From: Escherichia coli
Lineage (GTDB): Bacteria > Pseudomonadota > Gammaproteobacteria > Enterobacterales > Enterobacteriaceae
DNA length: 64,000 nt
Direction: 5' to 3' (one strand)
Assembly: GCF_045037415.1 (NCBI RefSeq)
Contig: NZ_CP173438.1
In this document: positions 1 to 3,000 of the stretch, piece after piece
How positions within the stretch are numbered: position 1 is the stretch's first letter
Layout: each line of letters begins with the position of its first letter
Position numbers: made by a program

Positions 1-3000
1 ATAGCGTACCACCTGAGATAAGGTACGGATCCTGAATGCGTACTGACCGGAAACCATACCAGGCAACAAATTTCTGTTCGCCAGTAAGTTATCCTGCCGG
101 TGCTGCATATTCTCCTCGTGGGGTATCCAGTGTAAATTAACGTAAGCGGAATGTCAGTGCTGAAATTTACACCAGATAAAAAACATACAGAAACAATCCT
201 GTTATGTAAAATCCGGGGAAAATATCAGAAATGTGATCGGAGTTGTATTTTTCGGAGGGGAAATGGAAAACAAACATCCGTATGGTAAAAAGGATGCTTC
301 CTGCGGAGTAACAATCCGGGACACAACGCAAGTTCCAGTTCAGGTGTTGTGAATTTGAGTAAAAATAATCGTAACTCTCCGGAGAACCGGAGCTTTCCCG
401 AAGCGGCGTATTCTTATAAATGGAAATCCCTGCAGGTAATCACTCTGCCCGATAGCAGCATAATTTGCCTGTTAATCCTCATCCCCGGAGGCAAGCTCTG
501 AAAACCACTCAGGGTGTTCACTGTATGCCACATTCAGCGCATCCCAGGAGACGTCCGCATAAAAACTGTCCCGCAATTTGCGGGTAACCACCTCTGCCAG
601 TCGGTTCCGGTTATCCGCCTGTCCGGCATAACCTCTCTCTGCCAGCCACTCATTCAGTTCATGTCCCAGAGACAGATTGATAAAATCGTAATCGGACCTT
701 GCCATTCCCGTTTCCTTTGCACATTTTTTTCAGACACGGGAATAAAGTATAAAAAGCGGCACTCTGCCCCTGTCAAGGTGAAATCTGCCCTTCATCGCAA
801 TGTCAGAGATGGTATGCCGGTATTTTGCGGGTTGTTCCCGTCAGGTTATCGCTCGCTTCCACGGACGTTGTCACCACCGGCATTCCGCTCTTTCTCAGTC
901 TCAGGATATCAGCCGCAATGCGCTGACTACCAGACCAGAACAGCCCGTCCAGTGCAGTCACCAGTAAACCGGCTTCCAGCGCATACTTCAGCCGTTCACG
1001 GGGCACTTTCACTTCCCGGGCAATCTGCTGATATGGCGATGATGTATTTTCATTCCCAACCATCCGGCGAATACGATGAGACAGATGATACCGGAATGTA
1101 TCCGGTACACCAGAAAGACTGGCCTTCAGGCTGTACACGCAGCCAAACCGTTTATCGTTGAACACCACATTTTTCTGGCTGAGGCCCCATTCTTCCCGAA
1201 GCGCGGCAATCAGTTGTGGTGTACGAGTAAGCAACAAGCGAAAAGGCAGTTCAAAACTGGTGACGTAATCCACATTCAGCAGGGCAATACGCAGCCGTTC
1301 TTCTGGTCCGGCCTCTGTCAGCCGACACTCCTCCAGAACATCCTGCCACTGCCGGCGAAGGCGTGGAGATTCATTCCGTTCGGTAAAAGAGTATTTATCC
1401 GCCAGATAGTCAATTCGTGTACGCATACTGAAGAGCATTCCGTATAAAGATTCAGCTGGCAAAACTTTATCAGTCCATAAAAATCAACGGAAGCGCAGAT
1501 GGTTCACACGTCCATTACCAACTGATTGTTGTCACAACCGGTAACACAAAGGACTGAACGACTGTTTTTAACAGCGGTGTTGCGTCATCCACCACCGTGA
1601 AACAACGCTGTGCAGGGAATCGTCCGCATCCCCATAACGGTCAAACATCGTGGCGTTGACAGAATGACCGACGAAAAGCCAGAAAGCGCTGATTCACTGA
1701 GCTGTAATCAATGTACAGCGCTGTACCGGACGATGGGTAATGGCGGTCACAACCGGTAACCCCAGAGACAATGCGACTGTTTTTAACGCAACATACTGAC
1801 CGGATGTATCACCCCGGGCAACCCGAAAACACCTTTCCACCCGGCATTGTCCGCCAGCACTTATCACCTGCCAGCTATGTTGCAGTAAATCCACCACTTG
1901 CGAACATTGTTCATCAACTGTGACACTGGCTCGCGGGTGACAAATACTCGTCTGGCTGAGCAGCAACAGGCATCGAATTGTTGCTCCTCCATGTTGTTCC
2001 CGCAACCAGCGTAATACCACCGACGATGATGGACTGGCAGTGTGATTGCTCTCAGTAATACGTTCATGCAGTTGTCGATAAAAGGAAGTGCAGAATGCAT
2101 GAATCTGTTGCCCGTAGATGTTTCCTTCTGTCGAATGGAGTATGAAGTGGACTGCCAGCAGACGCGGCCAGTGGTCAACAGCATGTTGAATAAAACGCCG
2201 GATGTCTCCCGGCTCTGAAATTAAGGCTTCGGTTATTTGCACGAAATGTTCCTTTTCAAACCCTGTTGAATTTTGTCAAACCGGTGCAGACACGCAGGAA
2301 AGCACGCCAGCACCGGTGTAATGCCAGTTATAATCAATAAGAATAGAATGACGAATCAGTCAGGAATAGCTATAACCTGCAGGCTGACTGGAGAATGTCT
2401 GCAAGAAGATGAACGTAAATGTCGCCAGCACCAGGGGCAGGGCCGGGTTCCACAATACCAGCGCTGGCATTTTGCACATTGCCAACGTACTGGCATCACA
2501 ACACGTTTCATGCTGCTGCTCCTCGTGATTCCTCAATTCGTTGTTGCATCCACTGCTCCACTTCACTTTTGTACCAGCGGCTGCTGCGCCCCAGTTTGAT
2601 GGGTTTAGGAAAATGCCCTTCACTGATCAGCCTGTAAAACCATTTATCGGTCATGCCGGTGAAACTGGTGATGTAGTTCATGTCGATCAGGGGATCGTCG
2701 GCACGCAGCCATACGCTGTCGTGGCTTGTTGTGGTCAACATGGTCAGAATGTCCTCAGTGAGATTTATGAAGAATGGGGTAATACGGGGAATGGGATGGC
2801 GTGCTGCTTTCAGCACTGCCAACCGGGATTGCCGGCAAGGCAACGGGCTTCCGGATCGCACACTCCACGGCGATCGCGGGCGAAATCACTGAACGCCCAG
2901 ATAAGGTCCTTAAACAGGGCTTCGCAGTCCGGTGACCGGCGATCCAGTACCACATCCCGGGTGATCTGCTTCTGGTACGGCTTTGCTTCACCTGGTGACG

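Follow-up and report, generated by a model that had tools for sequence, protein, structure and literature searches.

The first 2,242 nucleotides of the Escherichia coli DNA analysed here (64,000 nucleotides of contig NZ_CP173438.1, hereafter the window) are probably made up of the start of a cdiB cargo gene and three conserved backbone genes of an integrative island, which encode a Rep-like protein lacking the histidine-hydrophobic-histidine (HUH) motif, a winged-helix protein and a small acidic protein. The most likely role of this block is DNA binding and regulation for the island itself. All of its open reading frames (ORFs) are on the minus strand, downstream of an AlpA-like gene: ORF-C (positions 1694–2242; 182 aa, GTG start), ORF-B (803–1426; 207 aa), ORF-A (472–705; 77 aa, as listed among the ORFs) and an edge ORF (1–108) that runs off the left end of the window. 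This co-oriented arrangement, including the partial frame, had been noticed in a sequence-only reading, and it is confirmed because genomes that are 100% identical carry the same RefSeq coding sequences. Many complete E. coli genomes share the first 5.3 kb at 100% identity and have these coding sequences annotated, among them that of the uropathogenic E. coli (UPEC)/urinary tract infection strain 4/0 (NZ_CP023849.1), where the stretch belongs to the pheU pathogenicity island. The 1.9-kb block was matched in 3,055 of 5,426 complete E. coli genomes, at a median of two and a maximum of nine places per genome; copies of the block number 5,829 in all. Pairwise ratios of non-synonymous to synonymous substitution rates (dN/dS) between island copies differing by 4–25% at the protein level were 0.08–0.19 for ORF-B (207 aa), 0.27–0.46 for ORF-C (0.97 in one pair) and 0.03–0.60 for ORF-A. 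Taken together with the identity and annotation of the locus, these ratios indicate that the three ORFs are genuine genes under purifying selection, beyond chance ORFs, of which ORF-A is the least constrained.

When the window proteins were searched, ORF-A, ORF-B and ORF-C had no Pfam or PDB sequence match and no match to a PADLOC defence model at E ≤ 0.1, and no Rfam RNA family was found at positions 1–5400. The only strong family matches in the block were those of ORF-B, to NCBIfam ECs1377 (NF052300; 318.9 bits against a cut-off of 190, E = 8.1e-96, profile positions 1–190 of 190) and to phrog_24243, both of which are function-unknown families. By this profile match ORF-B is a member of the ECs1377 equivalog family; ECs1377 itself is a hypothetical gene of the SpLE1 island of O157 Sakai, near a HecB-like gene (PMC1890555). 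The predicted structure of ORF-B (pLDDT, the predicted local distance difference test score, 93.7) shows the winged-helix fold, with two winged helices in tandem and an N-terminal strand-helix arm. The C-terminal domain is a winged helix of the HTH_39 type, and among solved structures none matches the whole of ORF-B. HTH_39 (PF14090) scored 14.4 bits against ORF-B itself (E = 0.035), below its gathering cut-off of 21.3, and matched 17 of 21 ORF-B relatives at E ≤ 0.1, with a best value of 1.7e-5. The statement that the block holds no recognisable motif stands at the level of sequence only, whereas fold and profile analysis assigns two of the three proteins, ORF-B and ORF-C.

ORF-B has a conserved promoter of its own. 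On the minus strand at 1464–1492 we read TTCCGT, a 17-nt spacer and TAAAGT with an extended −10 (TGA), and across the ORF-B species loci the conserved pattern is TTCCGG, a 17-nt spacer and TGnTAAAGT; the conserved element at the promoter of ORF-B is CTTCCGGTT. The extended −10 is kept in 42 of 74 species loci, compared with 0.4 in shuffles, and the full pattern in 27 of the 74, compared with 0.06. The TTG at 1462, from which the ORF had been listed as 803–1462 and 219 aa, lies just downstream of the −10 hexamer (1469–1464) of this promoter, which is conserved across genera. A promoter at 1492–1464 therefore favours the ATG at 1426 as the start codon, and an independent transcription unit. The start is most likely this ATG, and the length of 219 aa gives way to 207 aa, as in RefSeq. 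Considering that ORF-B and its domains are basic (isoelectric point, pI, 9.7) and that the promoter element is conserved, we infer that ORF-B may bind DNA sequence-specifically. It would then act as a transcription factor expressed from its own promoter and independently of its neighbours, an independence suggested by other enterobacterial genera, in which ORF-B and its promoter are retained without the rest of the block.

With 112 representatives in a set of 1.8 billion proteins, ECs1377 is a narrow family, and 76 ORF-B loci, almost all in Enterobacterales, were recovered when 100,044 species genomes were scanned. In these 76 loci, no ORF-C, ORF-A or AlpA gene stands beside ORF-B outside Escherichia, and a conserved three-gene operon was rejected on this lack of synteny. 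Solitary copies have housekeeping genes as neighbours, e.g. hutH/hutU, an alanine-aminotransferase-type aminotransferase gene and cytochrome bd subunit genes. A tRNA gene lies within 3 kb of ORF-B in 12 of the 76 loci: in Citrobacter and Lelliottia (L008, 10001–10743; also L007, L009, L011 and L041), the 3′ end of tRNA-Arg(CCT) (argW) is 28–87 bp past the stop codon of the homologue, and in other species the tRNA is tRNA-Phe, tRNA-SeC or tRNA-Ser. The solitary ORF-B takes the place beside argW that an island integrase usually occupies. A search of its boundaries for att-like copies of the tRNA 3′ end found none, and solitary ORF-B was accordingly dropped as a candidate one-gene island; a phage origin was set aside because only 1 of 50,697 phage records holds a homologue. 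Identity to E. coli ORF-B is flat at 61–72% from Citrobacter through Serratia and Ewingella, which suggests that ORF-B spread horizontally rather than by vertical descent.

ORF-C is rich in cysteine, and several of its cysteines are invariant among homologues. It has no match to the Pfam YagK_YfjJ families (PF11726, PF23343) at E ≤ 0.01 and none in NCBIfam; its close homologues carry the newer Pfam accession PF27752 and are named in RefSeq as ‘YagK/YfjJ domain-containing’, ‘inovirus Gp2 family’ or ‘UCP030791’. When an alignment of 48 ORF-C sequences, including three distant homologues from Klebsiella aerogenes and Serratia, was compared by hhalign with 11 Gp2-family proteins, a match of 86.4% probability (E = 4.7e-6) was obtained over 132 columns. 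The structural model of ORF-C shows a Rep-type alpha/beta fold whose best fold match is an archaeal virus Rep, and its secondary-structure elements follow the same order as in the YagK/YfjJ Gp2 family. A member of that family is encoded nearby, namely the 188-aa YagK/YfjJ ‘inovirus-type Gp2’ Rep-like protein (3617–4183, minus strand), in the sequence of which H-A-H and Y-L-A-K are intact. In the alignment, T88-I89-R90 of ORF-C stand under H86-A87-H88 of the 188-aa protein, and the distant ORF-C homologues likewise have no histidines at the HUH positions. Y150-x3-K154 of ORF-C is conserved within the E. coli clade and absent from the K. aerogenes homologue, and the tyrosine of Y-L-A-K does not align with Y150. 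BLASTP detected no similarity among ORF-C, the 188-aa protein and the 186-aa protein encoded between them. Judged from profile and model, the most fitting reading of ORF-C is that of a divergent YagK/YfjJ ‘inovirus Gp2’ paralogue whose metal site has been lost. Since both HUH histidines are replaced (T88, R90), DNA nicking would have been lost, and ORF-C is probably catalytically dead. It probably descended from a stock of HUH rolling-circle Rep-like proteins shared with its Gp2/YagK-type neighbour and, if active at all, would serve the island as a DNA-binding accessory or regulatory factor.

The C-terminus of ORF-C varies. A 42-nt direct repeat (1531–1572 and 1746–1787; 81% identical) brackets a segment of ~173 bp from which the 182-aa variant takes its C-terminal tail and stop codon, and residues 164–182, the last 19, are poorly modelled (pLDDT below 50). 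The segment is missing from the O157, LR-24, SCU-111 and EcN copies, in which ORF-C is 169–170 aa long. Sixty bases of it (1602–1661) also match unrelated places, including a plasmid. The junction between ORF-C and ORF-B is a variable spot: some islands have a ProQ/FinO-family gene, oriented oppositely, and a 75-aa ORF inserted there (L004, 10508–11539). In K. aerogenes (L087, 1996–4444), a distant version of the module departs from the gene order seen here: an AlpA-like gene comes first, then a frameshifted gene like that of the 188-aa protein and then an ORF-C-like gene (~30% identical).

The third gene, ORF-A, encodes an acidic protein (pI 4.4) with no match in Pfam, NCBIfam, PADLOC or PDB. 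Its homologues form 117 protein clusters, nearly all from E. coli, and their N-terminal 21 residues are almost invariant. A 62-aa form, shortened by an in-frame deletion, is the most frequent variant, and there are frameshifted copies as well. In Escherichia, ORF-A always follows ORF-B by ~90–97 bp, and it is probably an Escherichia-specific add-on downstream of ORF-B; any role as the partner or modulator of ORF-B is guesswork. As a whole, ORF-A, ORF-B and ORF-C are probably conserved backbone genes of a family of integrative islands of E. coli in which AlpA and Gp2-type (YagK/YfjJ) genes are also found, with DNA binding, a regulatory or maintenance role and a lack of catalysis as the properties we would expect of the block.

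Several observations weigh against this backbone reading. Copies of ORF-A are frequently truncated or carry frameshifts, and in some islands ORF-B has become a pseudogene; these degraded copies make it plausible that the genes are dispensable. YagK_YfjJ_C is matched, weakly, by only 2 of 45 ORF-C relatives (best E = 0.0032); the hhalign match was not significant with a shallower ORF-C alignment and reached significance with the three distant, partly fragmentary homologues; and the ORF-C model is of medium confidence (pLDDT 71.8), with one good model of five. Neither experiments nor literature address the function of ORF-A, ORF-B or ORF-C. The first group of these facts also suits an explanation in which an ancient mobile element has left the three genes behind as decaying remnants with no present function. 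This is unlikely in our judgement, if the least so of the alternatives. It accounts for the 62-aa and frameshifted forms of ORF-A, for the ORF-B pseudogenes in EcN and DS566-2, for the ORF-C copies on plasmids, which are frameshifted, and for the loss of the catalytic motif of ORF-C and the replacement of its C-terminus by rearrangement. However, the dN/dS values, above all those of ORF-B, are far under 1, many genera have preserved an intact ORF-B with its promoter at 62–72% identity, and the block is kept in thousands of genomes, in several copies, all of which speaks against decay.

Unlike the three complete ORFs, for which no function has been defined experimentally, the edge ORF, counted as a fourth uncharacterised gene in the sequence-only reading, has a well-defined function; the four did not all turn out to be known backbone genes of defined function. 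Window positions 1–108 (minus strand) translate to MQHRQDNLLANRNLLPGMVSGQYAFRIRTLSQVVRY, the first 36 codons of cdiB. In a 100%-identical genome the full coding sequence is 588 aa long and matches Pfam ShlB (1.6e-90), POTRA_2 (5.7e-25) and POTRA_3 (2.6e-18); leftward of it are a 9.8-kb cdiA (3,262 aa, annotated as a tRNA nuclease) and then a cdiI immunity gene with a CdiI_3 match (2.1e-28). By these matches the edge ORF is CdiB, a two-partner-secretion transporter of the ShlB/FhaC/HecB type that opens a cdiBAI contact-dependent inhibition (CDI) operon, and cdiB is cargo, neither backbone nor part of the uncharacterised block. The region upstream of cdiB (109–471, minus strand) stands in place of the DUF4222 gene that follows ORF-A in most other islands. 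It contains minus-strand promoter-like sites at 210–182, 157–129 and 136–109, and an inverted repeat (TATCCAGTGTAAATT / AATTTACACCAGATA, 124–138/164–178) overlaps all three. This repeat (124–178) could be a candidate operator for cdiBAI.

This arrangement raises the question of whether the neighbouring CDI or two-partner-secretion cargo has its dedicated regulator in ORF-B, perhaps together with ORF-A; ORF-B would then bind the cdiB upstream region, where the inverted repeat overlaps the promoter-like sites. In most islands sampled, what comes after the block is either cdiB or a DUF4222 gene together with a TpsB gene or its remnant, and a TpsB/CdiB gene or remnant lies directly downstream in strains 4/0, LR-24, SCU-111, O157:H7, DS566-2 and E110019; likewise, ECs1377 precedes the HecB-like gene in O157 Sakai (PMC1890555). 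The same flanking fragments recur, however, so that descent from one ancestral segment looks likely; the cdiB/ORF-A junction occurs in 392 genomes as against ~1,872 that carry ORF-A, mostly followed by DUF4222; other islands continue past the block with fimbrial, type VI secretion system (T6SS) or insertion sequence (IS) sequences; and solitary ORF-B copies have no TpsB or CDI neighbour. For these reasons a dedicated CDI regulator is unlikely, more so than the decay of the block.

A bolder proposal takes the solitary copies as its starting point. ORF-B would be an autonomous, horizontally spreading one-gene unit, composed of a tandem winged-helix regulator and the promoter that drives it, and would reprogram how horizontally acquired DNA is transcribed, perhaps by lifting the silencing of CDI, two-partner-secretion or fimbrial cargo. 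ORF-C, Cys-rich and without HUH, would be its DNA-targeting partner, a pseudo-enzyme derived from Rep. This would explain why ORF-B persists alone beside tRNAs in many Enterobacterales and is present several times over in the islands of E. coli. We hold this to be speculative and improbable. Still less probable is a defence, anti-defence or toxin–antitoxin module, in which ORF-A might be a DNA mimic or antitoxin and ORF-B its partner. ORF-A is indeed small and acidic (pI 4.4), and islands of this type, the present one included (further right), often carry antirestriction and toxin–antitoxin genes. Nevertheless, none of the three proteins matches a PADLOC model, ORF-B occurs without ORF-A in all non-Escherichia loci, no toxin-like domain is present, and ORF-A is often truncated while its neighbours are retained, which makes such a module very unlikely.

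The position of the block within its island was derived from strain 4/0. The window and this strain agree at 99.96% identity up to 25.3 kb and at 99.4%, with 16 gaps, over 25112–64000; the lower identity beyond 25.3 kb indicates that the window strain is closely related to 4/0 but different from it. To the left of cdiBAI, strain 4/0 carries a methyltransferase gene, IS fragments, a two-component system, hlyCABD, cnf1, two fimbrial operons and pap, and its tyrosine integrase and tRNA-Phe (pheU) are at 4913193–4914728 of the record, ~80 kb left of the window edge. The block had been placed between alpA and the integrase end of the island, a placement that does not hold, since cdiBAI and other cargo lie directly to its left and the integrase ~80 kb further; the advice to look leftwards for the integrase and the tRNA gave the right direction, but they are not adjacent. 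Although integrase and tRNA-Phe do lie leftward in this closest complete genome, it is scarcely tenable that the block is an integrase-proximal backbone segment with both just beyond the left edge, as the interval is filled by cdiBAI, hlyCABD, cnf1, fimbrial and pap operons and several IS elements, the edge gene is cdiB, the block reads towards the integrase and has the distal GTPase/RadC/CbtA module as its neighbour, and 100% identity across the left-edge junction in 348 genomes makes a nearby integrase in the window's own strain unlikely. An AlpA-family regulator accompanies the block, and no integrase or tRNA site stands next to it. From the layout in strain 4/0, the block is the distal (cadC-end) core of a roughly 128-kb pheU island, transcribed towards the integrase.

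Rightward of the block, the AlpA-like helix-turn-helix regulator/excisionase (2508–2741, minus strand) matches Pfam Phage_AlpA (3.1e-10) and phrog_2790, ‘excisionase and transcriptional regulator’ (8.2e-10). Next to it, the 186-aa hypothetical protein (2810–3370, minus strand) has no family match; its comparison with the Gp2 family by hhalign, made with only three sequences, was not significant and placed YHVVL under HAHVV and DAWSNV under ECWQAI. On this alignment, the 186-aa protein may be a third degenerate Rep-like paralogue. The 188-aa protein matches Pfam REP_ORF2-G2P (1.1e-5) and YagK_YfjJ_C (4.8e-4), both just under the cut-offs, and has a Gp2-type name in RefSeq. From the start of dsdA at 5294 to about position 21000, the alpA block is separated from the remaining island core by another copy of the dsdCXA (D-serine) locus and a microcompartment cluster with choline trimethylamine-lyase genes (cutC/cutD), an insert that is absent from strain LR-24, of which the island layout is otherwise the same. 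A second Gp2-family gene (243 aa) lies at 30299–31030. The stretch at ~33000–46800 begins with a CP4-44-like module, of a kind typical of CP4-type islands, with GTPase, DUF905, DUF932, antirestriction, JAB/RadC, DUF987, CbeA/CbtA, DUF5983, DUF957 and DUF4942 genes. After this module come an IS21 element, an EAL-domain gene and, by cadC at ~46.6 kb, a tyrosine-recombinase (integrase) fragment. No tRNA genes were found within the 64-kb window.

The block is an ordinary, already catalogued and very common segment of E. coli pathogenicity and fitness islands, and nothing in it points to a new kind of system. The outcome is mainly a tidying of annotation, in that the unknown block is catalogued, one of its ORFs is cdiB and the integrase is distant. 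The added value is modest: ORF-C can be assigned as a putative disabled Rep-like paralogue, and ORF-B as a two-winged-helix protein that has its own conserved promoter and survives alone in many other enterobacterial genera. Because these genes occur in more than half of sequenced E. coli, by virulence and competition loci, identification of the ORF-B targets would be a cheap test of island self-control.

Each part of the block can be set beside a known system. ORF-B resembles the ECs1377 and HTH_39 families in passing the ECs1377 cut-off and in its HTH_39-type C-terminal domain, and differs from HTH_39 proteins in having two winged helices and an N-terminal arm. ORF-C resembles the YagK/YfjJ Gp2 family (PF11726, PF23343), which is known from CP4-type cryptic islands and filamentous phages, in its profile match and Rep-like fold; it is two genes away from a canonical member, and its homologues are named after the family in RefSeq. 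It differs in the missing Pfam match, the lost HUH, the unconserved position of the tyrosine and its many cysteines. The edge locus is like cdiBAI of E. coli (the class of UPEC 536; TpsB/TpsA), with a ShlB/POTRA transporter followed by CdiA and CdiI_3, except that only 108 bases of it are inside the window, as adjacent cargo. For the island as a whole, the closest described architecture is that of Pseudomonas islands in which the integrase (intY) is at one end and a core of alpA, inovirus Gp2-like, helix-turn-helix and RadC genes is at the other (PMC12595487); the likeness to the present island is one of layout. The Pseudomonas transfer-messenger RNA (tmRNA) islands and CP4-57, CP4-6 and CP4-44 share AlpA, Gp2/YagK-type, helix-turn-helix, GTPase, DUF932, antirestriction, RadC and CbtA/CbeA genes with the present island, as well as insertion at a tRNA gene with the integrase opposite the alpA core. 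In CP4-57, alpA is transcribed away from the integrase, whereas here the alpA block is transcribed towards it and is followed by cdiBAI.

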